Source of the DNA: Lysobacterales bacterium | GTDB taxonomy: Bacteria > Pseudomonadota > Gammaproteobacteria > Xanthomonadales > SZUA-5 | NCBI GenBank assembly: GCA_022844165.1 | Contig: JALHMH010000004.1 | Location: 10,197-74,196 of the forward strand | DNA length: 64,000 bases | Reading direction: 5' to 3' | Shown: one piece after another, positions 5,058 through 63,114 of the stretch | Layout: each line of letters begins with the position of its first letter | Position numbering within the stretch: the stretch's first letter is position 1 | Made by a program: the position numbers and the translations under genes | Notes under the pieces: model-generated | The model's database searches: none | The model's input: only the letters and a program-made list of their open reading frames with translations | What the model was told of the DNA's origin: nothing

Positions 5058-5740
5058 GCGAGGCCTTGATCGAGCTTCGCGAGCTCAAATTCGGCTGGGC
5101 CAAGGATCGCGTCGATCTCGATATTCCGGCTCTCGATGTGGCCTGCGGCGGACGCGTGTTCGTGCGTGGGCCCAGCGGCAGCGGCAAGAGTACGTTGCTG
5201 TCGTTGCTGGCGGGCGTGGTGGTCGCGCGCTCCGGCTCCGTGCGCTTGCTCGGGCAGGCGATGGAAGCATTGAGTGGTTCGGCGCGCGACCGTTTCCGTG
5301 CCGAACACATCGGTTATGTGTTCCAGCAGTTCAACCTGCTGCCATATTTGAGCGCCGTCGATAATGTGCTGCTCGGGTTGCGTTTTTCGCGGCGGCGGGC
5401 TGCCGGTATCGTTGATCGAGCCGCCGCAGCGTACGAGCTTCTGCAACGGCTTGGATTGGATCTGGCCCACGCTCAGGCCTTGGCAGGCGCGTTGAGTGTT
5501 GGCCAGCAGCAGCGTGTTGCCGCGGCGCGCGCGTTGATTGGTGCGCCGGCGTTGATCATCGCCGATGAGCCGACATCAGCCCTCGATGCCGATACGCGCG
5601 ATCAGTTCCTGTCGCTGCTGCTCGACGCCAGCACCGCGGCGGGCAGCGCGGTGTTGTTTGTGAGCCACGATTCGAGTCTGGCAAGCCATTTCGATCAGAG
5701 CTGGGATTTGAATCTTCTCAATCGCGCGAGGGCGCACTGA
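5054..5740 (+). CDS. ABC transporter ATP-binding protein (MacB/LolD-like; ZrgB-like position)
   Basis: Walker A GPSGSGKST, signature LSVGQQQR, Walker B LIIADEPT. GTG 5054 overlaps the upstream stop. The longest ORF, starting at 4916, would overlap the preceding gene. Confidence 0.85.
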   Translation: MSEALIELRELKFGWAKDRVDLDIPALDVACGGRVFVRGPSGSGKSTLLSLLAGVVVARSGSVRLLGQAMEALSGSARDRFRAEHIGYVFQQFNLLPYLSAVDNVLLGLRFSRRRAAGIVDRAAAAYELLQRLGLDLAHAQALAGALSVGQQQRVAAARALIGAPALIIADEPTSALDADTRDQFLSLLLDASTAAGSAVLFVSHDSSLASHFDQSWDLNLLNRARAH

Positions 5741-8580: not shown

Positions 8581-10464
8581 ATGAGTTTTGACGCACTCGG
8601 GCTGTCGCCCGCGTTGTTGCGTGCTGTGGCCGAAGAGGGCTACGGCAGTCCCACCCCAATCCAACAGCAGTTCATTCCGCCGGTTCAAAGTGGGCGCGAT
8701 GTGATCGCTTATGCGCAGTCCGGCATGGGGAAAACGGCGGCGGTGGTGCTGTCGCTGCTGGAGCGGCTGTTTCCTGGTGGCACGCGTCAGCACCACGAGC
8801 GACCCAGAGCCTTGATTCTGACGGCAACGAACGAACAAGCGACGCAGTGGCAGAGCGCGTTTGAAAATTACGCTCGACATCTCGAACTTGACGTGCCGGT
8901 TTCGATTGCACTGGCTGCTGATGCCAAAGTCGACACGGTGGACATTCTGGTGGCTACGCCGGAGGCTGCGGACAGTCTGTTCACCCAATGGCAGCAGATC
9001 GATCAGGTGCATGTGGTTTTGCTGGACGGTGTCGATGAGTGGCCCAACGACGGACAGGTTCTGCAGCGCTTGATCGACGTGCTGCCGAAGTCGCGGCAAA
9101 CGCTCGTGATCGCCGCCAGCCCTTCGGAGGAAGTCGATCGGTTGGCAACGGACTTGATGTCGGAACCGGCCATCGTCCAGGTGCAGTCTCCGAGGCGCAA
9201 TATTCCTGCGGTCGAACATCAAACCTGGGTCGTCGCACCCGGCCGAAAACGCGATGCCTTACAACATCTGATTTCTCAGAATCCCGAGCGGCAGTCGCTG
9301 GTGTTCTGTCGCACCAAACACGGCGCGGACAAAATCGCACGCTTTCTTGAGCGCTGGGGACATCTGGCGGCGGCATATCACGGCGCAAAAAGCCAAGGCG
9401 CCAGAGCGCGCGCGCTGGCTGGATTCACGAGCGGCGAGTTGAAGATTTTGGTTGCCACCGATATCGCCGCACGTCACTTCGATCTCACGGCCCTGCCGGT
9501 GGTCGTGAACTACGACTTTCCCTATGTTGCCGACGATTTCATTTCGCGGATCGCGAGAACCGGCCAGAGCGGTGGCGCGGGTGGACTGTCGTTGAATCTG
9601 GTCACGCAAGACGACACGCCGCAGTACCGCGCAGTGCAGAGTTTGTTGGACGGCATCCTCGCGCCGGCGCCGCTGGAGGGCTTCGAGCCCGCAGAAGCCT
9701 TCGACCCGAGCAAAGACCCGCCGCCGCGCGAAACGCGCGAGCCGCAGGAGCCACGTCCGCCGCGCCACCGCGCGCCAGCTCCAGCAACCGCAGAGTCGGC
9801 AGATGGCGAGCCGCGGCGCAATCGTCGTCGCCGTGGCCGAAAAGAACGAGCACCAACGGCGCAGCCCTTGTCGCTGGAGGGATTGCCGGTCGATGAGGAT
9901 GATCAGGCGCAGGCAATCGGCGCGGTGCGACCGGATGGCGAAGCGACGAACGCCGAACGCCCGCGTCGCGAGCGTCGGCGCCGCCGCAAGCGTAGCCCAG
10001 GCGATGCAAATGCGCCAGTCGACTTGAGCAACGTGCTGGACGATGTCGATGCCGATGCCCAGGCCGATATCGACGATGACCGGCCGCAGCGCGGCAACTC
10101 GATTCACGCGCCGCCGATTCCGCAGTACCCGCAAGTGCGCGGACGGCGCCGTGGGCGGAGCGATCCGTTTGCGCCGGTGGTTGTCGACGAAAACCGCGCC
10201 AACGTGTTCGATGAGCGTCAACCCGATGACTTCCGCGATCAGTGGAGCGTCCTGGGCCCCGACGCCAGCCGTCCCGCCTGGACGTATGCCGATCACCGCC
10301 AGCCCAGCCCTGAAGTGCGTCGTGCGCCTGGCGCGCCGCGCAACGCCGCACCTCGTGGCACGCCTCGTGGCGCACCCCGGAGCGTTCATTCGGACGCAGC
10401 GCCACGCGATGGTGCGCCTCGCGGTCGCCGTCGACAGCGCCCGCGGAGTGCCGCAGATCGCTAG
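8581..10464 (+). CDS. DEAD-box-like RNA helicase paralogue with substituted catalytic motifs and an Arg-rich tail
   Basis: It has a Q-motif region (GYGSPTPIQQQ), AQSGMGKT and a helicase C-domain (LVFCRTKHGADK ... ILVATDIAARHFD). The C-terminal ~230 aa are low-complexity and Arg/Pro-rich. See the finding for the motif substitutions. Confidence 0.85.
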   Translation: MSFDALGLSPALLRAVAEEGYGSPTPIQQQFIPPVQSGRDVIAYAQSGMGKTAAVVLSLLERLFPGGTRQHHERPRALILTATNEQATQWQSAFENYARHLELDVPVSIALAADAKVDTVDILVATPEAADSLFTQWQQIDQVHVVLLDGVDEWPNDGQVLQRLIDVLPKSRQTLVIAASPSEEVDRLATDLMSEPAIVQVQSPRRNIPAVEHQTWVVAPGRKRDALQHLISQNPERQSLVFCRTKHGADKIARFLERWGHLAAAYHGAKSQGARARALAGFTSGELKILVATDIAARHFDLTALPVVVNYDFPYVADDFISRIARTGQSGGAGGLSLNLVTQDDTPQYRAVQSLLDGILAPAPLEGFEPAEAFDPSKDPPPRETREPQEPRPPRHRAPAPATAESADGEPRRNRRRRGRKERAPTAQPLSLEGLPVDEDDQAQAIGAVRPDGEATNAERPRRERRRRRKRSPGDANAPVDLSNVLDDVDADAQADIDDDRPQRGNSIHAPPIPQYPQVRGRRRGRSDPFAPVVVDENRANVFDERQPDDFRDQWSVLGPDASRPAWTYADHRQPSPEVRRAPGAPRNAAPRGTPRGAPRSVHSDAAPRDGAPRGRRRQRPRSAADR

Positions 10465-10703
10465 CGAGACTTCGCCTCAGACCGACGAGCATTGCTGGCT
10501 TCGTGCGACAGCGTACTCGCCACAACACCGCGCTCCGCATTTCCGGCCCGGCGGCACAGCCGCCGGTCGTTCGGCTCAGCACACGCCTTGCGGCGTGCAA
10601 GCGCCGATCCTCACCGCCCTTGACTCAAGGGGGCTTCAAGAGCCAAAGCTGCTTCGCGGAAAATTTGACTCATTGTCGAGATCAGTCTCCGTCAAGGACG
10701 CTA
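10461..10703. repeat. family B copy 3
   Basis: The sequence ctagcgagacttcgcctcagaccgacgagcattgctggcttcg ... ccgtcaaggacgc aligns with 7295-7529. The helicase TAG stop (10462-10464) lies in its first bases. Confidence 0.6.
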
Positions 10704-10980
10704 GGCGAACCTGGTGTCTACTTGCAGAGTCTCGATGCATTCGAAGCCTATGGCATCGCCCATCGCGGCGTTGCTCATCCTCGCAATAGCGTTGGCTATT
10801 GCTGCGGTTCGCGCCTGTATCACCGGTTGCTGATGCAGCTTCACGCTCGCACTGTTCGCACGAAGACGGGTACAGGCGCGACAGCTCGCAAGCCTGAACG
10901 GCGCAATGAGAAGAAACACGCTATTCAACTGCTCATAAGGCAATAGATACATGAATCTACGGGCCTGGAAAAGCGGGCAA

Positions 10981-11197
10981 CTGAGGAGCGGTTTGAATGA
11001 CCTACCGAGCGGGTCGAGAGCAAGGCGCACCGCGCGCAGGAACCGCAGTGGACATAGAGTCCATGAGGGTGAAGCGGTCTTTCGAGCGGCATGCCGCGAG
11101 CCGCTGAACGCCACGCAACTTGTTGCGTGGCCGGGGAGCGAGCACGGAGCAACGCAGCTATCGACCCGCGCAGTAGGTCATTCAAACCGCTCTGAGG
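10981..11197. repeat. ~217-bp element with ~33-bp terminal inverted repeats (family D, single copy in the window)
   Basis: The left arm ctgaggagcggtttgaatgacctaccgagcgggtcga pairs with the right arm tcgacccgcgcagtaggtcattcaaaccgctctgagg, with a core of 19+9 identical nt. There is an internal hairpin gccacgcaa-cttg-ttgcgtggc. Confidence 0.5.
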
Positions 11198-11220
11198 CTT
11201 CCAGGTCCAATTCTCAGACC

Positions 11221-18920: not shown

Positions 18921-21575
18921 TCATGGCCCTTCGAATCCATTCTCGAAAACCGCGTCGCCGATCGTAGTGTGCATCGCCGGTGCGGAGCCACTGTAGGCGT
19001 GGGCGATCGAGCCTATGTACTCGGCGAGGACGATGGCAATTCCGGCAGTATCGAAAGTGATCGTGCAAGCGAATTCAATGGTGTCAAGCGTAACCGGCGA
19101 TGGTGTACTGTCGATGCAGGTCTCGCCGCTGTTGGCCATGAATCGAACCTGACCTGTGGTCGGCCGGGGAGATGCGCTCACGCGAGCGGTGAACATGACG
19201 GGTTGACCCACGGTCGATGGATCTGGCGAGTCGCCGGTGATGATAGTAGAGGTGGCTACGCCCGTTCGGTGCAAAACGACTCGATTGCTCGCTCGCTGTC
19301 CAACGGCGAGCTGGTTTCGCAGCGGGTCATAACTGAAAACCTGTACCGCACCCTCGCCAGGAACCAGACCCAGCACACTGTGTGTATCGTTGATCTGCCC
19401 GACAACACTGCCGTTCGCCAGACCGAGCGTAATCGCACCCGTCGCGTTGAAAATGTTGCTCCAGTTCCGGCTCTTGACGACAAAATTCCCGTTGGGCATC
19501 GGGACAATGCCAGCGTCTCCAACGCTGTCATTTGCGATAGTGCCGATGATCGAATTGAGCGGCGACACCACGCCGCTGATACCCGTCGTGCCGTTTCCGA
19601 GGGTCACCGAGCCGACGTCACCAATCGGGCCGTTGTCCCACGCCGTGCTTTGCACCACATAGTCTCCGTTGGGTAGCGCGGTGACACCGAGGCCGCCGAT
19701 GTAATCATTTACCTTGCTTCCCACCAGCGAGTTCGACGGCGAAACAACGCCGACGATTCCAGTCGTGCCGGATGCAAAGGTTACGGCGCCTACATTGGCG
19801 ATCGCCCCATTGTCCCAATACGGGGAATTGATCACGTAGTTGCCATTGGACAGTGCTGTAACACCATGACTGCCCAAGACGTGTTCGGTCGCCTCACCGA
19901 CCAGCGAATTGACTGGCGACACAACTCCCGTGATGCCCGTTGCGCCCGAGGCGAAGGTGATTGCGCCAGCATTGGCAATCGCGCCATTGCGCCAAGCGAA
20001 GGACCGAACCACATAGTTGCCGTTGGTCAAAGCAGTCACGCCGCCGATGCCTACTTGATCGTTCGCGACGCTTCCGATCAGCGAGTTCGATGCAGACATG
20101 GGGCCCGCGACCCCGACCGACCCCGAACCAAAAGCAACGGCGCCAACGTCGGCGACTGAGCCGTTGTCCCAGCGGGAGTTCGCGACCACATAGTTGCCGT
20201 TAGACAACGGCGTTACGAAGCTGCCAAGGTTTTCGTTTGCGGTGGCGCCGACCAAGGAATTAGTTTGCGAAACCGTACCGACGATCCCAACCACCCCCGA
20301 CCCGAAGGTAACAGCGCCTGCATCAGGTATCGCGCCGTTGTCCCACGCCGCAGAACCGACGACGTAGTTACCATTCGCCAACGCCGTCACGCCGCTGCTA
20401 CCAATGGCATCGGCCACGCCTGTGCCGATCAATGAGTTCGCTGCTGATATCGTCCCGCGTATGCCTTGCGTTCCTGATCCAAAGGTCACCGCTCCCACAT
20501 CGGTGAGTGAGCCGTTGTCCCAGCTTATGGAGCGAACCACGTAGTTGCCGTTGGTTAGCGCCGTGACGCCAGCCGCACCTACTTGATCGCGAAACGAACT
20601 GCCAATCAGCGAGTTGTCGGACGAGATAGGGCCGCGTACACCCAACGTGCCCGAGCCGAACGTCACGGCGCCGACATCGCCGATGAAGCCATTGTTCCAG
20701 TCGGGGCTGGCAACTACGTAATTTCCGTTGGCGAGAACCGTTATTTCTTCAATCCCGATGTTGTCGAAGGAGGAACTTCCAACAAGCGAGTTCTCTGCCG
20801 AAACCAGCCCGACGATCCCAGTTAAGCCATTGCCGAAAGTGACGGCACCTTGATCATCACTGCCCCAAAACGGGCTTCTGATCACATAGTTACCATTGGG
20901 GAGCCCGGTCACTCCCAGGGAACCTACTTGATCGAAAGGCACACCGACCAGAGAGTTCGACGCTGACACAACGCCAGCGACGCCGATTGTTCCCGAGCCA
21001 AAGGTTACCGCGCCAGCACCATTGCTCCACCGGGCAGTGGCGACCACGTAGTTGCCGTTCGTCAACGCCGTGACCCCGGTGTTACCTACCGCATCGTTCG
21101 CCGAGCTGCCGACCAGCGAATTGGCCGACGACACCTGGCCGTTGATACCTGAGCTTGCCGAACAAAAAGTGACCGCGCCAGCGGCCGGGATTGATCCGTT
21201 GTTCCACTCCGGGCTCCTGACAACGAAGTTGCCGTTCGCCAAGACGACAATGCCGCCGACGCCGACGCGGTCGTTCTCGGCGCTGCCTCGAAGGGTGCTG
21301 ATCAATGTGCCGGTCGGCCGATACAAGTAAACCGCACCGATGTCGGAAACAGCTGGATTCGGTAAATCGAAGAACGGATCGGTGACAACAATATTGCCGT
21401 TCGGCAACGTAGTTACCGAGGTACCGAACAGGCTGCTGCCCGGTGGGCCCGCAATGACCATCTGCGCTGCGTAAACATCGCCGACAAGCAGTGCGAATGC
21501 ACAAACCGCGAACCGGTAAACCCGAGTCGCAGTGTCTTCAGAAAGTCGACGACTGGATTTGGTGGAGTTGCTCAT
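18921..21575 (-). CDS. exported protein with about 11-12 tandem ~60-aa repeats, a C-terminal Ig-like domain and a terminal FENGFEGP
   Basis: Start ATG 21575 (MSNSTKSSRR..., signal-like FAVCAFALLVGDVYAAQ). The repeat consensus is NGNYVV-SP-WdNG-x5-GAVTFGSG-x-G-x-G-VS-x-NSLVG. The tail reads TSTIITGDSPDPSTVGQPV ... DAVFENGFEGP. Confidence 0.8.
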   Translation of the reverse strand: MSNSTKSSRRLSEDTATRVYRFAVCAFALLVGDVYAAQMVIAGPPGSSLFGTSVTTLPNGNIVVTDPFFDLPNPAVSDIGAVYLYRPTGTLISTLRGSAENDRVGVGGIVVLANGNFVVRSPEWNNGSIPAAGAVTFCSASSGINGQVSSANSLVGSSANDAVGNTGVTALTNGNYVVATARWSNGAGAVTFGSGTIGVAGVVSASNSLVGVPFDQVGSLGVTGLPNGNYVIRSPFWGSDDQGAVTFGNGLTGIVGLVSAENSLVGSSSFDNIGIEEITVLANGNYVVASPDWNNGFIGDVGAVTFGSGTLGVRGPISSDNSLIGSSFRDQVGAAGVTALTNGNYVVRSISWDNGSLTDVGAVTFGSGTQGIRGTISAANSLIGTGVADAIGSSGVTALANGNYVVGSAAWDNGAIPDAGAVTFGSGVVGIVGTVSQTNSLVGATANENLGSFVTPLSNGNYVVANSRWDNGSVADVGAVAFGSGSVGVAGPMSASNSLIGSVANDQVGIGGVTALTNGNYVVRSFAWRNGAIANAGAITFASGATGITGVVSPVNSLVGEATEHVLGSHGVTALSNGNYVINSPYWDNGAIANVGAVTFASGTTGIVGVVSPSNSLVGSKVNDYIGGLGVTALPNGDYVVQSTAWDNGPIGDVGSVTLGNGTTGISGVVSPLNSIIGTIANDSVGDAGIVPMPNGNFVVKSRNWSNIFNATGAITLGLANGSVVGQINDTHSVLGLVPGEGAVQVFSYDPLRNQLAVGQRASNRVVLHRTGVATSTIITGDSPDPSTVGQPVMFTARVSASPRPTTGQVRFMANSGETCIDSTPSPVTLDTIEFACTITFDTAGIAIVLAEYIGSIAHAYSGSAPAMHTTIGDAVFENGFEGP

Positions 21576-21946
21576 AGCTGCCCCAAAGAAAGCCGGTTGT
21601 GAAGCCGATGCCCGAATCCATCGATCTCGACGAGATTTCCTGTCGCCCTTTCCGGGACCCAGCGGCACCAAGACATCACACCATACGCATCGAAAATGAC
21701 CAACGTCCACTCGTCGTGTAGTCGCGGCACGACAGTCGGAAAGGCCCTATCAACTGGCTTCGCATCCTCCCCGGCCGTGGGTTTGCCCCACGAAAGAAGC
21801 AAAGATTGGCTTTCAAGCGATTCGTCCATACGCTGTTGAGTCCTTTCTTGCGACCGATCCTGCATCGAGAGCGCAAGTGACCGGATTCCCTCGAGTTGGC
21901 GCTCAATCACCGACCAGGGAATCGAGTATGAAATCGGCCAATCCAA
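21572..21946 (-). CDS. possible 124-aa ORF translationally coupled to the repeat protein
   Basis: Its TGA overlaps the downstream ATG (ATGA at 21572-21575). Codon bias is only moderate and there is no recognisable motif. Confidence 0.3.
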   Translation of the reverse strand: MDWPISYSIPWSVIERQLEGIRSLALSMQDRSQERTQQRMDESLESQSLLLSWGKPTAGEDAKPVDRAFPTVVPRLHDEWTLVIFDAYGVMSWCRWVPERATGNLVEIDGFGHRLHNRLSLGQL

Positions 21947-26141: not shown

Positions 26142-26711
26142 CTACTTCTCGTGGATCGGATGGATGTCCGCTGGCGAGTCAGTCAGGGGTGCCGCAACTG
26201 GCTTCAGGGACAAAGACTCGGTCGCATAGTCGATCACGGCGGCATGGGCGTCAAATACGTCCGCCCCGAGAATTACCTCGACATCGGCCGACCCATTTGC
26301 TCGGAGCGGTGCATTCACGTGCTCGAAATCTAACCCGGCAGAGCCCGCCAGCCGCGGGATAAAGGACCCAAGCTGCAAGACCGCCCCCTCGACCCAGTAC
26401 TGATCAAGCGCGCCGCCGGCACCGGCTGCCTCGCGGTTCAACCACGTTGTGCGAAGACCGATGCTCCGAACCACCGTCTGTGGAGACGTTCGCATCACAA
26501 ACACGGCTCGATTCAGACGAGATCGCGTGACATAGGAAAGAACGCTTCTCCCGGTGTACGCCTTGAAAACCCGATGAAAGTGAAACGGCGAGAAGTTCGC
26601 GACACGGGCGAGCGCGTCGAGGGAGAGGTCCGAATCTGGATGGCGATCGATATGGTCGATGACCCGATCCAGGCGATGCCGGAACTCGGCGAGGGCGGCG
26701 TCAGATTTCAC
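26142..26711 (-). CDS. chimeric ORF: AraC/XylS-type N-terminal HTH fused to the C-terminal two-thirds of a retropepsin-like protease
   Basis: Residues 1 to about 78 read LSLDALARVANFSPFHFHRVFKAYTGRSVLSYVTRSRLNRA (AraC HTH). From ..IGLRTTWLNREAAGAGG onward the DNA is near-identical to 44147..44480 (block 26092-26477 matches 44096-44480). The DTGA catalytic region is absent. Confidence 0.6.
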   Translation of the reverse strand: MKSDAALAEFRHRLDRVIDHIDRHPDSDLSLDALARVANFSPFHFHRVFKAYTGRSVLSYVTRSRLNRAVFVMRTSPQTVVRSIGLRTTWLNREAAGAGGALDQYWVEGAVLQLGSFIPRLAGSAGLDFEHVNAPLRANGSADVEVILGADVFDAHAAVIDYATESLSLKPVAAPLTDSPADIHPIHEK

Positions 26712-28928: not shown

Positions 28929-30652
28929 TCAGGCGCTCGGCGCCAGGCGAGTCCAAACCCGTTGACCCAGATCCAGCTCGAACATTGCGTCGTTGTTGTT
29001 ATGCGCATCATCGCCATGGTCGATGCGACCACCGAATACGCGAATGCGCCCGGCCGTCGTCAGCACGGCGCGATGTTTGTAGATCGATCCTGGAGCGTCG
29101 CCGCTGGTTTCCAGTCGGGTGATGCGCAGCGTGCGCGTATCGAGTGCGAACACGGGCGTCTCGCTCTGAACACGCTGGTGCTGATAGCCGAGCGAACCGA
29201 TGAGGTAAATCGTGTCGCCCACGAGCGTGGCCGTGTGGAAATCGGTCGGCGGAAAAACGTCCGCTGGATAGCCGTAGATTTCGATGCGGCCATCCGGGTA
29301 GTGCACAAACACATCGTTGTAGATGCAGAAGTCCGGGTCGTAGCCATCCTCGTGCTCGCCCGCTATCTGGATGATTCGCCCGTCGGCAGAAAACTGATCG
29401 ACTGACCGAATCGCTCCGCGCACCACACCGGATGCTCAATGGACGACGGTTTGTCGCTGAACTGCGTTCGCGCCAGCCATGCACTGATCCCGGATCGCAC
29501 CATGGCCATCCAGAATGGATCGTCCATGCGCTCCGGGTTGCTGGTGCCGAAGCGCCGCTGCGCGCCGCGCGAGAAGGCCTCAGGCGTCGCATCGAAATGG
29601 CGCACACTGGGTTCGGCGGGCAGTCCAACCAGCGCACGCCGAATCTCGAACTGCAGGTTGTTCGGGTCCGCGCCGGCGTCGAGCAACGCCCGTGCCGTGG
29701 TCGCCTCACGACAGCAGTACAGTGCGTTGAGATGGCCCTGATGTTGATCCGGATCCTGCCCGTCATCGAGCAGCGCTCGGACCGCTTCGAAGCAGCCGCT
29801 CTCACACGCGCAGGCTAACGCCGACGTGCCGAATTCATCCGTGTCCAGCAATGAGAAGCCTTGCTCGACCAGCCAAGACAACATCGCGACGTTTTGCATT
29901 TCGATGGCATAGAAAACCGCCGGCTTGCCACAACGTCCACGGGCGTTGCGCGCCACACCATGCAGCAACAACAGCTCAACCTTGTGCTGATCGCCCGTTT
30001 GAATCGCCAGCAGCAACGGCGTGCGCTCCCAGCCGTCCCGCCCTTCCGCATCTTCGCCTGCATCCAGGGCCGCGTTGACCTCCGCCAACGTGCCGAGCGC
30101 GATCGCTCGATGCAGCGCCGACCATTCCAGCGGCGTCGGACGCGCGCCGGCCGCCAGCAAACAACGCACGCCTTCGAAGTGGCCGATGTTCGACAGGACC
30201 GACAAGGCGGATTCGCCATATCGGGTGACCACATCCAGCTTCGCGCCGCGCTCGATCAGCAAAGTCAGCAAGGGCAGCAGCTCTTCTGGCGTTCGCCCGG
30301 TGGCGCTACACGCAGCGTCAATCAGCACAGAGTAGCCATTGCGCGAGGCGTGAATGTCCGCACCCGCATCCAGCAGCAATCGCGCCTTGCGAACATCGCA
30401 AGCCGCCAACGCAAACGACAGCGGCGTGCGGCCGCGGTCGTATTCGCGCTGCGCGCCGATGTTCACCGCTGCGCCTGCGTCGATCAGCGCCCTTACGATC
30501 TCGGGACCCGCTTGCGCGCTGCTCGCGGCAATCATCAGCGGCGTCAAGCCGGCTTCGTCGAAGCGATCGATTGCGTCGCCGTTTGCGAGCGCAATAACGC
30601 CTTCGATATCGCCGACTTCCGCGGCGCGATGTAGTTCGTACTGTGGCTTCAT
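28929..30652 (-). pseudogene. ankyrin-repeat protein with a C-terminal beta-propeller/Kelch-like region, interrupted by a frameshift
   Basis: ORF 29363..30652 (MKPQYELHRAAEVGDIEG.., at least 9 ANK repeats) ends ..ERFGQSISFLPTGESSR*. The +1 frame continues FSADGRIIQIAGEHEDGYDPDF.. as ORF 28929..29426. The shift is within about 29380-29400. Confidence 0.65.
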
Positions 30653-30975
30653 TCGGAAAACGGGAGGCGGCAACAGGTGAGTGTAGCGCTGAAGGTTGGT
30701 GCGCATCGATCGTTTGCCGCAGAGGTAAACGCTGTGACGGTCTTCGGGGACTGAGAGTCGGCGAGCTTGGGTCATGCGGCAATCATGACCTCGTACCAAG
30801 GCCGTATCTGTCGGACTAGCGCTGGAGTTCGTGTCAGAATCTTCCAACAGCTGACGGCTGTCCGCGATCGATTCTGATGAACTGGACCTTGCTCATCCAA
30901 GGAAATGCTGGTGAGGGGCATTCGGGCGCAGGCCACACGGGAACTGATACGGAAGATTCGGGAGACAAAGCCGAA

Positions 30976-32352
30976 ATGGGAAACAACTCTGACATCGATT
31001 TCGTGCTTCGTTTTGAAACGGCTCCCAAGGGAACCGTCTACCTCTCGGTCTCGTGGCAGCCCGATTCAGGCAAGGATTTCGGGTACAAAGTCATCCGGAA
31101 GCTGGATGAGGAGAGGTACCTGGCCGTCGGCGATGTCAAGGGGTTCGCAGATATGAACACCGCGCGCCTCAGGAGAATCATGGGCCAAGCTGACGCATTC
31201 CTGTCGCTCCTTCCGTTCCGACCCGACAAGCCGTTGAAGACGTCTGGATTTATGCTTGACGAGATCCAACTGGCAGTAGAACTCGGAATCCCGATTGGCA
31301 TTCTTTATGACGCTCGGATCTCACCGGTTATCACAGACGAACCTGGCAGGGATTCCGTTGTCGTCGCCACAAGCGACAGGCAGATCACCATCCCGCGAGA
31401 ACGTCTGGCATTGCTCACGCCATTTGATTTCGGTGTTAGGAGGTCGGAGGAGCTTCAGCTCGTCGAACTCGCCGAGTTTCTCAGGAAGGTAACCACACGG
31501 CAGTCTGTTGTGGGTCCCTATGCATTCTTGATTTCCCGCCTGCAGCCAGACTTCCGTCTTCCACGGGAGGCCTGCCTAGCCGCCGCAGAGCGCGGATCTG
31601 GTGTGCCTTGCTACTGGATTGACTCCGAAGACTACCGGAGCAATGTTGACGACACGATCGATCGCGCCCGCTTGCTGATCAAGCACGCCACTTTTGTTGT
31701 TGCGGAGATATCCCTGACCGACGAAAACCCCGACTTTGACAATCCGAGCCGAGCACATGAGATCGGGTTAGCCACCGCTTATGGGAAGGTAGTGTTCCCA
31801 GTTTCCCATGCACCGCGTCGTCATCCGTACCACGGCCTCGTGGATCAGCAGTTGGTCTGGTGGGATGACGAAGAAGACCTTTTCGAGAAGCTTGTCGCTG
31901 CCGTGCATGCAAAAAGGGGATTAATCGGTCGGCACGTCTACAACTGGGAGCTGGAACGAGTTGACAAGGGACAGATGCCGCAGTTTCGATCGCCTAGGTT
32001 TGAGCCAGAAGGGGACCGTTGGCAACCACCAACCAACGCGGCAGAAAACCAGACTCAAGGTTGGATCTACGCTGTCAGTTTCGGAGTGATCGCATTCACC
32101 GTGGCGCTGCTACTTCGTCACGGGGTCGGTTATGACGATTCACTCGACCTAGCGGCGATACTTGCGGGGGTCGCTACCTTCATGTTTTCGTCGAGAATCA
32201 GCAGAAGCATCCAGTCGGCACTGACGCGAATTCGGTATCTAAGATGGCTCATACCCTGGATCGCGGCGCTACTCCTAGCCGCTACCATTGTTTTTCTCAG
32301 TCCGAGCGGGGATGGTGACCCGCCGGGTAGAGAGGAACGAAACGAGCGATAA
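30976..32352 (+). CDS. two tandem nucleoside 2-deoxyribosyltransferase/TIR-like domains + three C-terminal TM helices
   Basis: ATG 30976 is preceded by GGAGA. Domain 2: HATFVVAEISLTDENPDFDNPSRAHEIGLATAYGKVVFPV. Domain 1: ADAFLSLLPFRPDKPLKTSGFMLDEIQLAVELGIPIGILYD. TM helices: WIYAVSFGVIAFTVALLL, LAAILAGVATFMFSS, WLIPWIAALLLAATIVFL. GC is about 50-60%. Confidence 0.7.
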   Translation: MGNNSDIDFVLRFETAPKGTVYLSVSWQPDSGKDFGYKVIRKLDEERYLAVGDVKGFADMNTARLRRIMGQADAFLSLLPFRPDKPLKTSGFMLDEIQLAVELGIPIGILYDARISPVITDEPGRDSVVVATSDRQITIPRERLALLTPFDFGVRRSEELQLVELAEFLRKVTTRQSVVGPYAFLISRLQPDFRLPREACLAAAERGSGVPCYWIDSEDYRSNVDDTIDRARLLIKHATFVVAEISLTDENPDFDNPSRAHEIGLATAYGKVVFPVSHAPRRHPYHGLVDQQLVWWDDEEDLFEKLVAAVHAKRGLIGRHVYNWELERVDKGQMPQFRSPRFEPEGDRWQPPTNAAENQTQGWIYAVSFGVIAFTVALLLRHGVGYDDSLDLAAILAGVATFMFSSRISRSIQSALTRIRYLRWLIPWIAALLLAATIVFLSPSGDGDPPGREERNER

Positions 32353-32802
32353 ACAAGCGATAAACTCCAGGGGACGCATGTACGCCTCCGGTTAACACCT
32401 GATTCGCTTCTAGGTTTCGCTTGAACTCTTTCCGCTTGGGTCAACACCGCCTCGTCTCGATATTCGAGCTCGGAAAGGCGCCGGCGCGGATCGGATTGAG
32501 ATTGACGTAGGCCATCGCTGACCGTCACCGTACCAGAGTCCAACGCTCGGCCCACGACTCGTGCCCACACCGTCGCTGGTGCGACCGTCGCCTGGGGGGC
32601 TCTGAACAAGTCAGAGATTCCGCCGGCCAAGGAAGGCCGGCCCGTCATTAAAGCAAGCAAGTGATGGAATGCTGGAAACCAAGTCCGAACGTACGCCAGA
32701 CTGAAGCGTGGGCCTACAAGTCCAGCATGGACTTGTTTAGACCTTCCCTAAGAGCCAGACTGGCCGAAAAGACGCAGCGCCGATTCTGCAAGGAACGCCT
32801 TT

Positions 32803-33609
32803 TTGGCCAAGTCTGCTCACAACTGGATCGTGCGTGCGCCTGGCGAGGTGTCGCGTGTGGAGGCCTGTTTCACCGGCCAGCCCTTTGCACCGCATCGGCA
32901 CGACACTTATGCCGTGGCGATCACGGTCGCTGGCGTGCAGAGCTTCCGCTACCGCGGTGCGGCGCGGCAATCGCTGCCGGGTCAGGTTGTCGTGATCCAT
33001 CCCGACGAGTTGCACGACGGCCGCGCCGGCGATGGCGCGGTGTTTCGCTATCGGAGCCTGTACCTTCAACCCACCGATCTGCAGTCCATTCTGGGCGGTC
33101 GATCGCTGCCGTTTCTTGACGGCGGCGTGTCGAGCCATCCGCGTCTCGTCCGTGCGACGCGTGCCTTGCTGGAGGATCTGACGCGCCCGCTCGAATCGAC
33201 GGAATGCGACGAAGCCCTGCATGATCTGGCCATCGCTCTGCTCGAAGCCGCCGGCGCGCCGCTCAGGCCCGCCCGCGTCGACTACGCCGCCGTGCAGCGC
33301 GCGCGCGAGTATGTCGACGCGCATCTCGACGATACGATTGAGCTGGCGACGCTCGCGCAGATTTGCGGGCGCGATCGCTGGCAGTTGTCGCGCGATTTTC
33401 GGGCCGTGCTCGGCGCAAGTCCTTATCGCTACGCGGTGCTGCGCCGCCTCGATCGCGCGCGCGCGATGATGCGCACGAGGCAGTCGCTCGCCGACGTCGC
33501 CATCGCCTGCGGCTTCGCCGATCAAAGCCATTTCACGCGACACTTCAAGAAGACCTTCGGCATGACGCCGAGCACCTGGTCTGCGCACGAGCGTTCAAGA
33601 CCCGACTGA
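32803..33609 (+). CDS. AraC-family transcriptional regulator (N-terminal cupin-type sensor, C-terminal HTH)
   Basis: ..FAPHRHDTYAVAI.. and the C-terminal ..LATLAQICGRDRWQLSRDFRAVLGASPYRYAVLRRLDRARAMM...IACGFADQSHFTRHFKKTFGMTP. The start (TTG 32803 or GTG 32830) is uncertain. Confidence 0.8.
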   Translation: MAKSAHNWIVRAPGEVSRVEACFTGQPFAPHRHDTYAVAITVAGVQSFRYRGAARQSLPGQVVVIHPDELHDGRAGDGAVFRYRSLYLQPTDLQSILGGRSLPFLDGGVSSHPRLVRATRALLEDLTRPLESTECDEALHDLAIALLEAAGAPLRPARVDYAAVQRAREYVDAHLDDTIELATLAQICGRDRWQLSRDFRAVLGASPYRYAVLRRLDRARAMMRTRQSLADVAIACGFADQSHFTRHFKKTFGMTPSTWSAHERSRPD

Positions 33610-50797: not shown

Positions 50798-53700
50798 TCA
50801 CCAACCTACGTGTTCCAAGATGGGCCGAATCAGCCCACCGCCCCATTGCATGACACCCGGCATCTCCAGCACGACGATGGCCAACGCCAAGATCACAAAC
50901 GGCGTCAAGAACGCCGAAATAAAGGTCCAGGAAATGTCGGTGCGACCGGAGGTGTTCGACAACAAGCGGCTCAGCGCTTCATTGCGCTCACACCAGATCA
51001 GCGCGTAACAAAATCCGAATGCGCCCAGCAGGAGATAGCCCAGTGCCACCAGCAGTAAGCCATCGCGCGCACTGATCGGCCAGGCGTAACCGCATGCAAT
51101 CAATGCACCGGCGGCGACAAATGCGCCGTAAAAGCAAAGTCGAATTCGCCTGACCAGATAAGCGGCCAACGTCGCCGCAATCGTCCGATGGGTCAGCGAG
51201 TCGACGTACTGCTGACTAATTTCTGCCATGCCTCCGACGAAGGCGTTGGCCTGTGTAATTCCCAAGAACTTAAGCGACGGCAGCCAATCATGCTCATCGG
51301 CGTTGAACGGCGACTCGCGGAAGAAAGGCGGTATCCAGCGAAGTCGAACCTCACTTCCGTTGTGAACCAGCGCCGTGGTCGGGAGCACCGCCCAGTCGCC
51401 AAGCCTGAACTTGCCATCGGCGCTCGGCAGCGCTTGCATCATGCGCATCGTCAAGCGGCCGCTGAAGCGTCGCAATTCCGACAGCCACATAGCTGCCTGG
51501 AGCAACGCGGTCCAAGCCAGCAATCCGAGCAGCGCGGTCGCCGCGAAGGATGCCCAGGCGACCCAAGCCGAATATGGGACGAAGTGCAATCGAGGGCCCG
51601 AAATGGTCGGTGCGACCACAACGATCAGCGGCAGCAGCGCCAACACACCGACAGCGCCGATCGGACCTCGCGGCAGGCGGACATAGCGGACGAGCAGTTG
51701 TTGCGGATCTCTGATCAGCTCGACGAACCTGGTCGGTGGCTCCTTGTCTCCGTTCGCAATGAAATCGGCCCGCCAGCAGAGCAACCAGGTAGTCAAGAGT
51801 ACGCTTCCGATGACGACCGCGGTCAGCAATGGCAGACTGACGCCGTCGAAGATGCTCCCGGCAGAAGAACCCATCAGCTCATAGAGATTCCAAACAGCTG
51901 GACCGCTGGCCACTGCAGTCGCAACACTCAGCAAACATAGCGGCAATTGCGTTAGCGTCATTTCGGTCCAGACGTTCCATCCAGGAGCGAACTTGGCTGT
52001 TCTTACACTTGCCCAGAAGACGTATCCCAGGCACGCCAAGTTTGTGGTCAGCAAAAGAACTTCTGTGACCGCGGACGACAAGAGAAGAATAGTGAAGCCG
52101 GCCATCCAGGTTATCAAAGGCATCCAGGCGCGCATGGTCGACGACGCGCCAGGGGTTGGGCCGCCCTCCCCGGGCAGAGTGCCGGAGAGCACAATCGCAA
52201 AGAGGACAAAGGCAAAAAGCACCAAGGCAAGGAGCGACATGAACACGGCTCCTCGTCCAGCTAATTTGGCTTCCAATGCCTTCTCTGAAGCGTCCGCCAG
52301 AGACCTTGTTGTTGCGGTATGGAAAAGCGGCGGAAAACCAACGCTGATTCGAAGCGTTGACTGATTGCACCATCTTGTGCAAGCTTTTTCTTCGATGCCC
52401 AAAGATCGAACAAGGCAAAACAGCAGCGCCTGGTCGTCGGTGGAAAACGACTCATAGCTAGGAGTTTGGCCGTGGCTGTGGATCTCAAACTCCAGCGGAT
52501 GCGATGCCAACATCACGGCACCACGCGTGGCATGCGCGACGCTCGAGTGCGACATCAAGACATCGGCCTCTAAGTCGATGAATAAGGCTTGCGGCAGCTC
52601 ACCGCGCAACCGCTGCATCAGAAAGATCCGATCTCTGACATCGGTGGCGGCGATCACGACGATGCGTGGCCTGACATTGATTTTGATGTGGCGGATTGCC
52701 TGTTCAAGTTCGAGTTCGGCGCTGGCGATGGTGGTCGACGCTTGCGTACTTTCTGGAAACTCCGAGCCGTTTTCGGCACCGGGCGCCAGGTCGAGCAGCG
52801 AGTGGGAGTTGGGCAGTCCAAGCGCATCGCGCGCTATCGCTTCGGCACGCCGTTCGCGTTCACGGGCGCCGTGTCGGATGTCGGCGATGTTGGCTGGAAA
52901 ATGGACCTCTAATGCGCGCTGACACAGCTCAAGCTTGGACTCGTCGGCGCAAACTCCGCTGCCAAAAACCGACGCTTCGGAGAAGATCGCGACGTCACGA
53001 GATTGCGCGTTTGGCTGCTCCGGCAACACACCATTGCTGACGAGGCGAGCATGCAGATTCTCGAGCTTGACGTCGTCCGGAACTGCAAATGACCGATAGC
53101 TGAAACCGCCGTACCGCTTAGCCGCATGTTCGTTACTGGAAGACGTCGCAGCGGCCGACACCAGCGTCATCGTCGGCAGCTCACCCGGACGGGTTTGAAT
53201 GCCACGCAGCATTTGAATCGCCGCACTCAGCGGCTTGCAAGCAGCATCGGACTTCCAGCGCTCCTTCAGCCGCTTAACGCCATCGTTGGAGACGCGCCTT
53301 GGTCGATGCTCGGCGAGCAGTGCGGTGAACTCACTGGTGAACAGTGCGAGCTTGCGCCGTTCACGTGCACGACAACGGGTGTCCAATTGAGTGTCCGATT
53401 GAGCGTCTGCACGGGCGTGGCGCAGATGCGCTTCCAGCTTACGAAACGCATCGTGCTGAACCCGATCGATTCGTTCGTAGCGCTTGTGGCTTGATCGCAA
53501 GAGCGCGAAGGCACTGGCGATCGAGGACATTGAGCCGGAAAAAGCGGGACCGATCACCAGCACCGGTTTGACGTCTTCGTGCGTGACTAAAGCCAGCTGG
53601 TCTGGAGGACAGGTGGACTGACGTGTTGGCGTGAACGAACCAGGGATCGGTGCGTTGTCGAACGTCAATGCACGCTGCGGCAGGCATCCATCCCGACCGA

Positions 53701-54982
53701 GCGCCTTCCAGTGCGCCCGTCCAACGGCGTTGGCAAAGGCTTCTCGTTGCACGCCGAAGGAACCCGACTCGCCCACCACGTACAGTGCTCGGACAATGAA
53801 GCCCTCGGCATTGTTTCGACGGTAATCGTCGCGCCGAAACACCAGCACGCCGAACTTGCCATCGTCCACCAGCTGACTGCCGCCGCGTTCGACCGGAGCT
53901 ACGTATTTGGGATCGTCGAGGTACTGCTGCCAGGGCACGCTGTAGCGATCGAGTACGAATCCCGCGCTGAGCATGCCGCGCATGACTGCGTGTACGGATA
54001 GCTCGTACGCTCGGCGATGGCGTGGAATACGCGGGTCGGGAACCAACAACACGCCGTATTCGATGGCATCTGCGTCGGTGTAGATCTCTTCGAAATCGGC
54101 TTCGGGATCGATTTGCCGCGCAATGCCGCTGGTTGGTGTGGGTCGGCCCAGCAAACCGATCTCGATTGCGGTTGCGATCTCGTTCAGCCCCTCATGGGCT
54201 TCCAGACCGAGTTCGTCGATCGCTTCGGCTATTTGCTTATTGGCTGTTGCGACCCCATTGGTCGCATGGGCGATGTTCTGGGTTGCCGAACTCAGTGAAC
54301 TTGGGTTGGCCTGTTCGTCTTTCGTTGAGTCGCGCTTCGAATGCACCGCCTGAGCCACCAGTTCAGTCGCGCCCGACAAAACACTAGCGTGGTGAATGAC
54401 GGCCGAGACCTGGTTTGCTGTATTGGTTCTGTCGTTGATTTGTCCGCGTTCGATCAATCGCAACTCGACCCGTGCGTTTTCCAGTTGTTCCTGCCACAGG
54501 TTGGACTTGTCGCGCAGCCGACGAATGCAACCGTGGATCGAATCGCAGCGCTGGTTGTAGATCAACTCGGTCAGCTTGATCGGGTCGACAAAACGCGGAA
54601 ACTCCGTATCGCCCGCGCACTCGGGGTCTGCCAGCTCATCCACACTCACACACGCCGCTCGTTTCAGGTCACGGACGGTCTGTTCGTTGATCGGCGAAAA
54701 GTGACGGGCTGTAGCGTTGTTTTTCCAGATCGGACCCGATTGCCTTGAGTGGGGCAAAGGACAAAGCTCTTTAACCTTGTCCTGGCATGTTCTCGCCAAG
54801 TCGCACTGACGCTGCACATCAAACTCGAGGTTTGGCGATTGTCCTTGTGGGATGCCCCGCACGACGCGATGGCACTCAAGCACGGTATTGCAGTAGGGCC
54901 GCAACTCCCTCAAATCGGAAATGCACGCTTCCGCTGTTGCAGCCGACGCAAGAATGATCAAGCAGGCAAGTAGAGCGCGCAT
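50798..54982 (-). CDS. giant (about 1394 aa) membrane protein: signal peptide, Cys-rich/coiled-coil region, periplasmic-binding-protein-like region, about 10-12 C-terminal TM helices
   Basis: MRALLACLIILASAATAEA (ATG 54982; alternative 55093). There are 14+ Cys in the first ~200 aa. Type-I-PBP-like strands: YGVLLVPDP, VLVIGPAFSGSMSSIASAF, IVVIAATDVRDRIFLMQRL. A long hydrophobic C-terminal third follows. Confidence 0.75.
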   Translation of the reverse strand: MRALLACLIILASAATAEACISDLRELRPYCNTVLECHRVVRGIPQGQSPNLEFDVQRQCDLARTCQDKVKELCPLPHSRQSGPIWKNNATARHFSPINEQTVRDLKRAACVSVDELADPECAGDTEFPRFVDPIKLTELIYNQRCDSIHGCIRRLRDKSNLWQEQLENARVELRLIERGQINDRTNTANQVSAVIHHASVLSGATELVAQAVHSKRDSTKDEQANPSSLSSATQNIAHATNGVATANKQIAEAIDELGLEAHEGLNEIATAIEIGLLGRPTPTSGIARQIDPEADFEEIYTDADAIEYGVLLVPDPRIPRHRRAYELSVHAVMRGMLSAGFVLDRYSVPWQQYLDDPKYVAPVERGGSQLVDDGKFGVLVFRRDDYRRNNAEGFIVRALYVVGESGSFGVQREAFANAVGRAHWKALGRDGCLPQRALTFDNAPIPGSFTPTRQSTCPPDQLALVTHEDVKPVLVIGPAFSGSMSSIASAFALLRSSHKRYERIDRVQHDAFRKLEAHLRHARADAQSDTQLDTRCRARERRKLALFTSEFTALLAEHRPRRVSNDGVKRLKERWKSDAACKPLSAAIQMLRGIQTRPGELPTMTLVSAAATSSSNEHAAKRYGGFSYRSFAVPDDVKLENLHARLVSNGVLPEQPNAQSRDVAIFSEASVFGSGVCADESKLELCQRALEVHFPANIADIRHGARERERRAEAIARDALGLPNSHSLLDLAPGAENGSEFPESTQASTTIASAELELEQAIRHIKINVRPRIVVIAATDVRDRIFLMQRLRGELPQALFIDLEADVLMSHSSVAHATRGAVMLASHPLEFEIHSHGQTPSYESFSTDDQALLFCLVRSLGIEEKACTRWCNQSTLRISVGFPPLFHTATTRSLADASEKALEAKLAGRGAVFMSLLALVLFAFVLFAIVLSGTLPGEGGPTPGASSTMRAWMPLITWMAGFTILLLSSAVTEVLLLTTNLACLGYVFWASVRTAKFAPGWNVWTEMTLTQLPLCLLSVATAVASGPAVWNLYELMGSSAGSIFDGVSLPLLTAVVIGSVLLTTWLLCWRADFIANGDKEPPTRFVELIRDPQQLLVRYVRLPRGPIGAVGVLALLPLIVVVAPTISGPRLHFVPYSAWVAWASFAATALLGLLAWTALLQAAMWLSELRRFSGRLTMRMMQALPSADGKFRLGDWAVLPTTALVHNGSEVRLRWIPPFFRESPFNADEHDWLPSLKFLGITQANAFVGGMAEISQQYVDSLTHRTIAATLAAYLVRRIRLCFYGAFVAAGALIACGYAWPISARDGLLLVALGYLLLGAFGFCYALIWCERNEALSRLLSNTSGRTDISWTFISAFLTPFVILALAIVVLEMPGVMQWGGGLIRPILEHVGW

Positions 54983-55330
54983 GAGCGGTCCAAACTCTCT
55001 TGCCTGAAAGGAGATGCTTTGAGGTAACGTGTCCCAGATGTTCTGGTAAAGTTTTGTCAAAACTGCCGGCAGGTACTCGTTGCAACTCGGCAACCTGGCC
55101 GGCGCTCGCCGGCGAGCGCTATGGACCTCCAGCGCCTGGCGCGATGCCGGTCAATCCGACGGCCTGCGGCTGTGCACGAAAGCGCCGTCACCCCGGCCGA
55201 CTGCCCTGAAGTCGATTGCGCCAACGCCGCTGGGAATTGCTGCGTCGGATCTCCGCTGATTCGCGGTGTCGTTGTGCGATTGGCCGCGCGAACGCGTTTC
55301 AGTTTCGGACATGCATCCACGAGGTTTCTT

Positions 55331-62760: not shown

Positions 62761-63114
62761 GAAGATCCCTGAGTGGTTTGGCTTGCCATGGAAAACGTCG
62801 ACACCAGGCAAAGCGCACAACAGGGCTGCGAATCTCTGCGGATTTCGTCTGCGCGGTCGGCCAGCAGCACTTCGAGGCGCTCAAGGCGGTCTCCCAGCTC
62901 GAACAACTCAGCATGAACCTCGGCCGTGACTTCGATGCGGGGGCTTAAGGTCTCATAGCTGCCCGAGGCGGCAGGCTTGATCCGCACGTCCAGCCATTGC
63001 CAATCGCCCGCGAACTGGGCGATGCCAAAGTCGAGTCGCACACTGAACAGGCCGTTGTTGTACTCCGATCGAGCCGGCTTGCCTTGCTCTATCGGATTCG
63101 GATGGGGGCAGGGT

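Follow-up and report, generated by a model that had tools for sequence, protein, structure and literature searches.

What might a solitary bacterial gene do with two domains of the fold used by nucleotide-processing immune enzymes, followed by a short membrane tail? We examined this question for a gene at positions 30976–32352 (+) in a 64,000-nt stretch from a Lysobacterales bacterium (GenBank assembly GCA_022844165.1, contig JALHMH010000004.1, positions 10,197–74,196 of the forward strand); this whole stretch is referred to here as the window. The gene provides a compact one-gene case for asking whether domains of the TIR/nucleoside 2-deoxyribosyltransferase (NDT) fold act as ligand sensors besides acting as enzymes, and it also bears on how infection can be detected by a stand-alone protein without a dedicated signal synthase. 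A preliminary description made from the sequence had proposed a stand-alone protein with two NDT/TIR-like domains and a tail of three transmembrane (TM) helices, and the intact open reading frame (ORF), the AlphaFold2 (AF2) and Foldseek results, and the hydropathy pattern all agree with that outline. The reading we favor, with a probability of roughly 45%, is that the product is a single-polypeptide abortive-infection protein in which a cytoplasmic TIR/NDT-like pair would bind or process a nucleotide and thereby gate the membrane tail.

The ORF list, an alignment of homologues, and an identical 458-amino-acid (aa) protein already on record (P0001 of the protein collection) define a complete gene of 458 codons plus a stop codon. 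In the ORF list, the frame extends over 491 codons (30877–32352, +); the methionine at 30976 is the start in 18 of 18 full-length homologues, and, judging by their alignment, translation probably does not begin at the in-frame ATG at 30877, farther upstream. Direct reading of the sequence revealed GGGAG, a possible ribosome-binding site, at 30960–30964 (+), 11 nt before the ATG, while no sigma-70-like promoter was found in 30500–32900 and no convincing terminator was found around the gene. Homologues were recovered with E-values as low as 1e−260. When the gene was compared with the 85%-identical gene of locus L007, the ratio of nonsynonymous to synonymous substitution rates (dN/dS) was 0.17, which, together with the intact frame, indicates that the gene is functional and evolves under purifying selection. 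The gene has a GC content of 0.558 and a GC content at third codon positions (GC3) of 0.62, against a GC3 of 0.72–0.87 in the neighboring genes, confirming the lower GC than in the flanks that had been pointed out in the preliminary description.

A full-length AF2 model, built from a 19-sequence alignment with a mean predicted local distance difference test score (pLDDT) of 78.5, contained two beta-alpha-beta domains followed by C-terminal helices. When the full model was searched with Foldseek, DNPH1, Chroococcidiopsis NDT, and Leishmania NDT were retrieved with a probability of 1.0 and a template-modeling score (TM-score) of 0.5–0.68 (target-normalized), the output not specifying which of the two domains was aligned. 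Matches of the full model to flavodiiron proteins, GlmS, and glycosyltransferases, with a TM-score of about 0.2, were set aside as spurious global matches to two-domain Rossmann-like proteins. For the whole protein, library scans with Pfam, NCBIfam, PADLOC, and PHROG returned only a sub-threshold NDT match and a chance match to Rv1733c, and domain 1 and the tail were covered by no model in any of the four. In the sequences of the Protein Data Bank (PDB), the single sequence found nothing, and the family profile gave matches only at an E-value of about 0.3. The expectation that structure and profile comparison would place both domains in the NDT/TIR fold group was upheld, and the two domains also aligned to each other on the helix carrying the glutamate (hhalign E-value, 7.5e−5). 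The two sequence motifs quoted in the preliminary description were both located, DEIQLAVELGIPIGIL at aa 95–110 and AHEIGLATAYGKVVFPV at aa 260–276. The original assignment had to be refined in one respect: domain 1 is a divergent TIR domain, and only domain 2 is NDT-like.

Domain 1 spans aa 8–175 (30997–31500, +) and was delimited by AF2, Foldseek, and hhalign as a divergent TIR-like flavodoxin fold. In the full-length AF2 model, it occupies about aa 19–173, and the order of its elements is beta-alpha-beta-alpha-beta-alpha-beta, a four-stranded beta insertion, and a long C-terminal helix; modeled alone, the domain reached a pLDDT of 85. The insertion (aa 113–150; 31312–31425, +; DSSP strands at 118–150 in both AF2 models) has a shorter counterpart in relatives fused to TIR, P0088 among them. 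Against a profile made from the 46 N-terminal domains of relatives that Pfam recognizes as TIR_2, the domain 1 profile aligned over 129 columns with a probability of 96% and an E-value of 4.3e−9 (hhalign). In the same alignment, its beta-A motif YLSVSW (YLSxSW in the profile) lay on the TIR beta-A motif (FlShah), and E96, carried on the helix TSGFMLDE, lay on the catalytic glutamate of WV..Ey..A. The codon of E96 is at 31261–31263 (+), and glutamate occupies this position in 94% of 125 relatives. The best PDB matches of domain 1 alone in Foldseek were T. brucei NDT, the SARM1 TIR domain, DNPH1, the CMP N-glycosidase BcmB, and plant TIR domains; with the TIR domains of SARM1 and of RPS4/RRS1, the TM-score was about 0.54–0.62 (target-normalized) at a probability of 0.99–1.0. 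In BFVD, domain 1 retrieved viral CMP hydrolases, NDTs, and a Cap12/Pycsar-type TIR domain. The Pfam TIR models (TIR_2, PF13676; TIR, PF01582) matched neither the whole protein nor isolated domain 1 sequences even at an E-value ≤10. By profile alignment and predicted structure, we regard domain 1 as a divergent TIR domain.

Domain 2 (aa 179–331; 31510–31968, +) was recognized from a sub-threshold Pfam match, an alignment with PDB 2a0k, the relative P0074, and Foldseek. Pfam Nuc_deoxyrib_tr (PF05014) matched aa 231–283 with an E-value of 0.049 and 14.2 bits, short of the gathering score of 28.8, and P0074 came nearer (E-value, 2.7e−5; 24.7 bits), likewise under the cutoff. The family profile aligned domain 2 with the NDT of T. 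brucei (PDB 2a0k), a match that is itself sub-threshold. In this alignment, E262 (codon 31759–31761, +) corresponds to the catalytic glutamate of the "FEVG" motif and is glutamate in 98% of 118 relatives, while E244 (codon 31705–31707, +) corresponds to the aspartate that ends the "IADLS" strand, the position being aspartate in 77% and glutamate in 21% of relatives. By analogy with the NDT family, E244 would be the general acid. E262 belongs to the invariant motif D255-N-P-S-R-A-H-E262-I-G-x-A, and in the full-length AF2 model, where the domain occupies about aa 183–329, the core elements follow the same order as those of domain 1. When domain 2 was aligned with the TIR_2 profile, the register was the same and the alignment was not significant (hhalign E-value, 0.06). 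Judging by these alignments, domain 2 is an NDT-like domain in which the dyad of Asp/Glu plus Glu is kept.

The preliminary description had made the persistence of acidic residues in homologues a decisive point, and among about 120 diverse relatives, E96 is indeed retained in 94% and E262 in 98%. Other positions conserved across about 120 diverse sequences are Y22, W27, D53, R64, R82, T89-S90, F184, C212, D216, D/E244, G264, R281-R282, and N323. The invariant polar residues sit where TIR and NDT enzymes form the active site (E96, E262, D/E244, D53, R64, R82, T89-S90, and R281-R282 being the conserved polar pocket positions), and such a conserved polar pattern is typical of small-molecule sites, unlike fast-evolving protein-recognition surfaces.

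Aravind and colleagues have described a TIR-DRHyd-SLOG fold assemblage (PMC7159879), of which this protein is a member. Membership of SLOG itself was considered and rejected: no SLOG family of Pfam matched the whole protein or the domain 1 pieces at an E-value ≤10, SLOG, ThsA, and LOG structures were absent from the top 50 Foldseek PDB matches, and the BFVD search with domain 1 gave only weak YpsA-like matches at ranks 31 and 46. Neither domain is closer to SLOG than to enzymes. For these scans, isolated domain 1 pieces and TM-tail pieces were taken from five diverse members each and compared with Pfam at an E-value ≤10.

A linker with a pLDDT of about 55–80 and no regular secondary structure (aa 332–361; 31969–32058, +) connects domain 2 to the membrane tail. 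The three C-terminal hydrophobic helices named in the preliminary description were all recovered. TM helix 1 (aa 362–383; 32059–32124, +; family mean hydropathy, 1.47) has conserved W363, A366, and F369; the short TM helix 2 (aa 392–406; 32149–32193, +; mean hydropathy, 2.08) has conserved F404 and S406; and TM helix 3 (aa 425–443; 32248–32304, +; mean hydropathy, 2.15) has conserved P427 and A430. Between the first two lies a short acidic loop predicted to be outside the cytoplasm (aa 384–391; 32125–32148, +; means of 0.1 K+R and 2.8 D+E), whose D391 is near-invariant (88% of sequences), and between the last two lies a basic amphipathic helix or loop, modeled as helical over aa 407–423 and predicted to be cytoplasmic (aa 407–424; 32194–32247, +; means of 4.2 K+R and 0.4 D+E). 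The AF2 helices of this region cover aa 355–384, 389–418, and 425–441, and after TM helix 3, a variable low-complexity segment with a pLDDT below 50 runs to the stop codon at 32352. By the positive-inside rule, the charge pattern predicts an N-in, C-out topology, in which both N-terminal domains would be cytoplasmic. At W363, A366, D391, F404, S406, R423-W424, and P427, the residue is retained in 72% or more of the 36 sequences compared; to judge from this alignment, the tail is conserved beyond the needs of a simple anchor. Assignment of the tail to SLATT was rejected, since the scan of five diverse tails gave only chance-level matches (best, DUF4231 with an E-value of 0.53).

The strongest argument for a role in biological conflict is that the pair is a module, found also behind TIR, patatin, and protease effectors. 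A word-indexed search found 23 related proteins; when 1.84 billion cluster representatives were searched exhaustively by profile, 269 were retrieved at an E-value ≤1e−3. We placed separate sub-profiles of domain 1, domain 2, and the tail on 172 sequences and scanned representatives against Pfam. Five architectures emerged, in which dom1 and dom2 denote the two domains: (a) dom1-dom2-3TM, the type studied here (about 440–480 aa); (b) TIR_2-dom1-dom2, the commonest distant type (about 420–450 aa); (c) Patatin-dom1-dom2 (about 600 aa); (d) Trypsin_2-TIR-dom1-dom2 and caspase-TIR-dom1-dom2 (about 680 aa); and (e) short proteins combining an incomplete dom1 with dom2, among them one with a CwfJ_C_1 (HIT-like) domain. 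In the relatives, the pair is C-terminal to the effector domains, and in the type studied here, the TM tail takes the place of the effector. TIR, patatin, and trypsin or caspase modules are classical abortive-infection effectors. The canonical TIR domains fused to the pair retain their own catalytic glutamate (consensus S.WV..Ey..A). When the TIR-, patatin-, and protease-fused relatives were scanned with PADLOC, their N-terminal effector parts were matched and dom1-dom2 never was. When the dom1-dom2 portion of a protein of type (b) served as the query, 141 clusters at 90% identity were obtained (P0186–P0299). This sister family of about 420 aa is much commoner than the TM type; its named members come from Burkholderiales, Nitrospirales, and gut Bacteroidota (Alistipes and Prevotella), and it is publicly annotated as "TIR domain-containing protein," only the N-terminal TIR third being recognized.

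A constant dom1-dom2 unit with exchangeable TIR, patatin, protease, or TM modules follows the pattern of ligand-sensing scaffolds such as SAVED, CARF, STING, and SLOG. In the reading we favor, the two domains would form an intramolecular pseudo-dimer with a nucleotide pocket, whose ligand could be derived from NAD+ or ADP-ribose or could be a (deoxy)nucleotide. On phage infection, occupancy or turnover of the pocket would lead to oligomerization, and oligomerization would in turn activate whichever killing module is attached. In the present protein, this would be the 3-TM tail, which would depolarize or permeabilize the inner membrane so that the infected cell stops. Of this scheme, we infer ligand binding, oligomerization, membrane damage, and phage defense. 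A bolder version sees dom1-dom2 as a portable immune sensor-transducer, a TIR/NDT counterpart of SAVED, and at most as a pathway in one chain, in which domain 1 would convert NAD+ on infection, domain 2 would bind or process the ADP-ribose-derived product, and the 3-TM tail (in the sister proteins, the TIR, patatin, or protease module) would kill without a partner gene; this version is speculative and quite unlikely as it stands.

The same conserved residues can be read in another way. The toxic or signaling activity might reside in the pair itself, which would act either on NAD+ (as a glycohydrolase or cyclase) or on nucleotides (as an N-glycosidase), with TM helices that only localize or restrain it; phage infection would trigger catalysis, for example by oligomerization as in TIR proteins or the NDT filaments of Retron-Eco1, and growth would stop through depletion of NAD+ or nucleotides rather than through damage to the membrane. 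Conservation of the glutamate at both catalytic positions and of the Asp/Glu of domain 2 speaks for this possibility, as do the nearest structures, which are the enzymes DNPH1, NDT, BcmB, and the SARM1 TIR domain. Precedents exist as well: the NDT-like effector of Retron-Eco1 assembles into NAD+-hydrolyzing filaments (cited in PMC12887533), and ThsI, a CMP hydrolase with TPR, is the type VIII Thoeris effector (10.64898/2025.12.03.692087). Furthermore, in the TIR-like DUF4062 (Swarozyc), a TIR/NDT-like domain with one conserved glutamate is a single-gene defense NADase (10.64898/2026.05.01.722283). However, the relatives fuse the pair to a second canonical TIR with its own glutamate, to patatin, or to proteases, and two to three killing enzymes per chain would be less parsimonious than a regulator paired with a single effector; the many conserved polar and aromatic positions of the TM tail likewise go beyond a simple anchor. 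We regard this alternative as doubtful, if a serious one. The sensor and enzyme readings are in fact compatible, in that a sensor degrading its own ligand would fit both.

The gene is very unevenly distributed. Among 185,579 species-representative genomes, the TM type was found in two, both metagenome-assembled genomes of Planctomycetota (Pirellula and Phycisphaerales), and a metagenome scan yielded six loci, mostly duplicates. Patchiness across phyla, with a Lysobacterales host here and Planctomycetota elsewhere, together with the atypical GC content, indicates that the gene was horizontally acquired. The best named homologues of a LolC/E-type permease encoded in the window likewise point to a Lysobacterales-like gammaproteobacterium as the host. 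The family was not found in the phage and plasmid collections, and the case for mobility therefore comes from composition and phyletic patchiness. At one locus, L002, the family gene is split into overlapping ORFs at 9763–10047 and 9824–11218, and the protein P0015 is an N-terminally truncated call; either the gene is a pseudogene with a frameshift, or the contig was misassembled here.

We compared the genomic contexts of about 11 independent TM-type loci. No neighbor was shared between the sampled loci, and the gene therefore acts alone or with unlinked partners. Approximately half of the contexts include restriction, abortive-infection (Abi), toxin–antitoxin (TA), mobile, or candidate defense genes. 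These are MazF in the window; a PIN TA pair at L001, with a TIR_2-Pterin_4a gene 2 kb away; an HsdR-like REase_I at L003–6 (E-value, 2.6e−132); AAA_16 plus HEPN_AbiU2 at L007; a GmrSD/NsnA-like gene, IS91, and group II intron remnants at L015; and, at L016/17, the PADLOC candidate single-gene defense PDC-S54 directly upstream (full-length match; E-value, 2.4e−105). The PDC-S54 genes lie at 5519–6757 of L016 and 2566–3807 of L017, a 55-aa ORF separating PDC-S54 from the family gene. Among the other architectures, the protease-TIR-type relative at L013 adjoins Trypco1/Trypsin_2 and MAP3K_TRAF_bd/TPR-S genes. The association with defense islands is suggestive rather than statistical. The homologues are stand-alone genes, and none lies in a nucleotide-salvage operon, the housekeeping setting that the preliminary description had named as contrary to its proposal; a nucleotide-salvage enzyme was ruled out on this ground. 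A phage-encoded anti-defense protein was ruled out as well, no homologues having turned up in the viral contigs of IMG/VR.

Two loci bear on whether the protein might be only the receiving half of a two-gene system, in which the pair binds the signal of an unlinked TIR (as in Thoeris) or cyclase and the TM tail executes the response. The patatin-type relative P0155 (JGI 3300047160) is adjoined by a divergently transcribed small TIR_2 gene (143 aa; 971–1402, −) and a NUDIX gene (29–613, −). This Thoeris-like layout suggests, if tentatively, that in some lineages a signal made by a TIR protein could reach the domain pair. The TIR_2-Pterin_4a gene near the member at L001 points the same way, and Thoeris is known to use TM effectors that are gated by a signal (Macro-TM, SLATT, and DUF6650-TM; 10.64898/2025.12.03.692087). 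In contrast, the window contains neither a TIR gene nor a cyclase, no TIR gene is adjacent at the ten other sampled TM-type loci, and defense effectors are almost always encoded beside their signal generators. A trans-acting receptor-effector of this kind is therefore improbable for the present gene.

Other loci raise the possibility that the protein has nothing to do with defense and is an accessory membrane protein that processes or senses nucleosides or nucleotides in envelope physiology or signaling, or is a component of a giant adhesin, its immune likeness being merely evolutionary. Ordinary metabolic and envelope genes surround the family gene at L018, in the upstream region of L016, and at L011. 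At L008 and L022, the start of the gene coincides with the end of a giant cadherin/Big_9 repeat gene, and the lack of a PADLOC match also suits this explanation. In these two loci, the stop codon of the giant repeat-protein ORF (25–8001 of L008 and 135–10001 of L022) overlaps the start of the family gene; the L008 ORF has Cadherin/Big_9/PKD-type domains and a length of at least 2659 aa, the L022 ORF is at least 3289 aa long, and the family gene may be co-transcribed with a surface adhesin in one lineage. An ordinary cellular role is nevertheless hard to square with the extreme patchiness (2 of 185,579 species representatives), a composition atypical for the host, and the lack of a conserved operon. 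It also conflicts with the sister architectures, whose TIR, patatin, and caspase or trypsin modules are hallmarks of conflict systems, and we give a non-defense role little credence.

Several observations count against a sensor-gated defense protein. The full NDT-type dyad of domain 2 and the TIR glutamate of domain 1 are both kept, a combination that fits active enzymes no less well than a sensor, and the closest structures are enzymes rather than SLOG sensors. The TM tail matched no known pore-forming family in the Pfam scan of five diverse tails, and neither a family of PADLOC-DB 2.0 (at an E-value ≤10) nor another DefenseFinder-type model matched the protein. The 64-kb window has no TIR gene (by TIR profile), no cyclase, and no further copy of the module, and the gene is linked to no signal-producing partner. 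TM-type relatives were not found in IMG/VR viral contigs, and neither TM-type nor TIR-type relatives were found in PLSDB plasmids. Finally, the sampled contexts are mixed: L002, L008, L010, L018, and L022/23 have no conflict-related or mobile neighbors, and the TIR-type relative at L011 lies between mreBCD and lpdA with no defense genes.

We then compared the protein with described systems. It resembles bacterial TIR immune proteins (DUF4062/Swarozyc, TIR-SAVED, TIR-STING, and PycTIR) in that domain 1 is homologous to TIR_2 by profile, has the glutamate in register, and adopts a predicted TIR/NDT-type fold; it is likewise a single gene, and its sister proteins place a canonical TIR domain before the same pair. 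It differs from them in that domain 1 is missed by all Pfam TIR models and is always fused to an NDT-like domain, here followed by the 3-TM tail. Unlike TIR-SAVED, TIR-STING, and PycTIR, it has no SAVED, STING, or cyclic nucleotide monophosphate (cNMP)-binding domain and no cyclase partner. The NDT-superfamily effectors of Retron-Eco1 and ThsI are similar in that domain 2 is NDT/DNPH1/CMP-hydrolase-like and keeps the nucleophile glutamate, and they are examples of this fold serving to arrest or kill cells during infection (PMC12887533; 10.64898/2025.12.03.692087). In contrast, the present domain scores 14.2 bits against a Pfam threshold of 28.8 and is fused to a TIR-like domain and TM helices, no reverse transcriptase or noncoding RNA accompanies the gene as in Retron-Eco1, and, compared with ThsI, TPR is lacking and no ThsB partner is nearby.

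With the membrane effectors Macro-TM (ThsC), SLATT (ThsH and CBASS), 2TM-SAVED Cap14, PycTM, and CARF-TM Cam1, the protein would share a plan in which a cytoplasmic domain of nucleotide-binding type carries a small number of TM helices, which, once activated, presumably breach the membrane. As with SAVED and CARF, the same set of effectors (TIR, patatin, protease, and TM) is found on one scaffold; SAVED itself is a fused pair of CARF-like domains. The present TM module is distinctive in being C-terminal, in having three helices, and in matching no SLATT or other Pfam model, and the cytoplasmic unit has the TIR/NDT fold rather than being Macro, SAVED, CARF, or cNMP-binding, with no linked synthase. 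Macro-TM and SLATT proteins are signal-gated membrane effectors (10.64898/2025.12.03.692087; PMC11204291). With ThsA (SIR2-SLOG) and SLOG proteins, the likeness consists of a conserved glutamate on the helix after a glycine- or Ser/Thr-rich loop, in a domain beside an effector domain; the present protein differs in matching no SLOG family of Pfam and in having a tandem heterologous pair rather than a single dimerizing SLOG.

Membership of Thoeris was rejected, because no ThsB-type TIR gene occurs in the operon or the window and a TIR gene is nearby only at L001 and P0155. Membership of CBASS or Pycsar was rejected too, because no CD-NTase or pyrimidine cyclase gene is adjacent and the protein has no SAVED, STING, or cNMP-binding domain. 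The architecture had earlier been left unassigned to any named system, and this held in our scans, with no PADLOC, NCBIfam, or PHROG match and only a sub-threshold Pfam match. No description of the dom1-dom2 pair was found in the literature searched, in which the Thoeris survey preprint was represented without its figures and supplementary tables. The building blocks and the logic are thus familiar, while the dom1-dom2 module and the dom1-dom2-3TM architecture are unannotated in the sources checked.

The immediate neighbors include ankyrin, MazF, AraC, and M48 peptidase genes. The MazF TA pair mentioned in the preliminary description is present, as a PemK/MazF toxin gene with a small ORF overlapping it upstream. 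The "TA-rich island" of that description was overstated, one TA pair being demonstrable. There are two ankyrin-repeat genes, one of which is a 494-aa ORF at 29363–30847 (−). A Kelch-repeat fragment (28929–29426, −) overlaps its 3′ end in another frame, suggesting that ankyrin and Kelch parts are one broken, frameshifted gene, in keeping with the frameshifted ankyrin gene noted earlier. Two neighboring proteins, presumably both ankyrin ORFs, match the PADLOC "Ankyrin" model PDLC02908 (best E-value, 7.5e−10). A truncated AraC-family gene (26142–26711, −) lies beside the ankyrin gene, its first helix-turn-helix recognizable and the remaining ORF unrelated, and an intact AraC regulator is at 32803–33609 (+). 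Between the family gene and this regulator is a non-coding stretch of about 450 nt (32353–32800) with no detectable gene or RNA family, in which a GC-rich hairpin, GCCGGCC-AAGGAA-GGCCGGC, is located at about 32623–32642; this stretch may be the region earlier described as TA-like or as repetitive extragenic palindromic (REP) elements. A repeat search around the locus found only short palindromes and chance-level repeats, with no flanking direct or inverted repeats that would mark a discrete mobile element, and no tRNA or Rfam features were found in the window. The window is also rich in large surface-repeat proteins, encoded at 50798–55093 (−), 58537–62820 (−), and 18921–21710 (−). Two of these ORFs are about 1430 aa long, one without a Pfam match and one with four Big_3_5 Ig-like domains, and the third protein has 929 aa with 11 DUF5650 repeats.

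If the reading of a nucleotide-gated abortive-infection protein is true, dom1-dom2 would be an unannotated two-domain module that evolution has plugged onto at least five different killing domains. With the gene described here, the TIR/NDT branch of bacterial immunity would gain a member that consists of one gene and acts at the membrane, and a function could be assigned to the larger sister family of about 420-aa "TIR domain-containing proteins."

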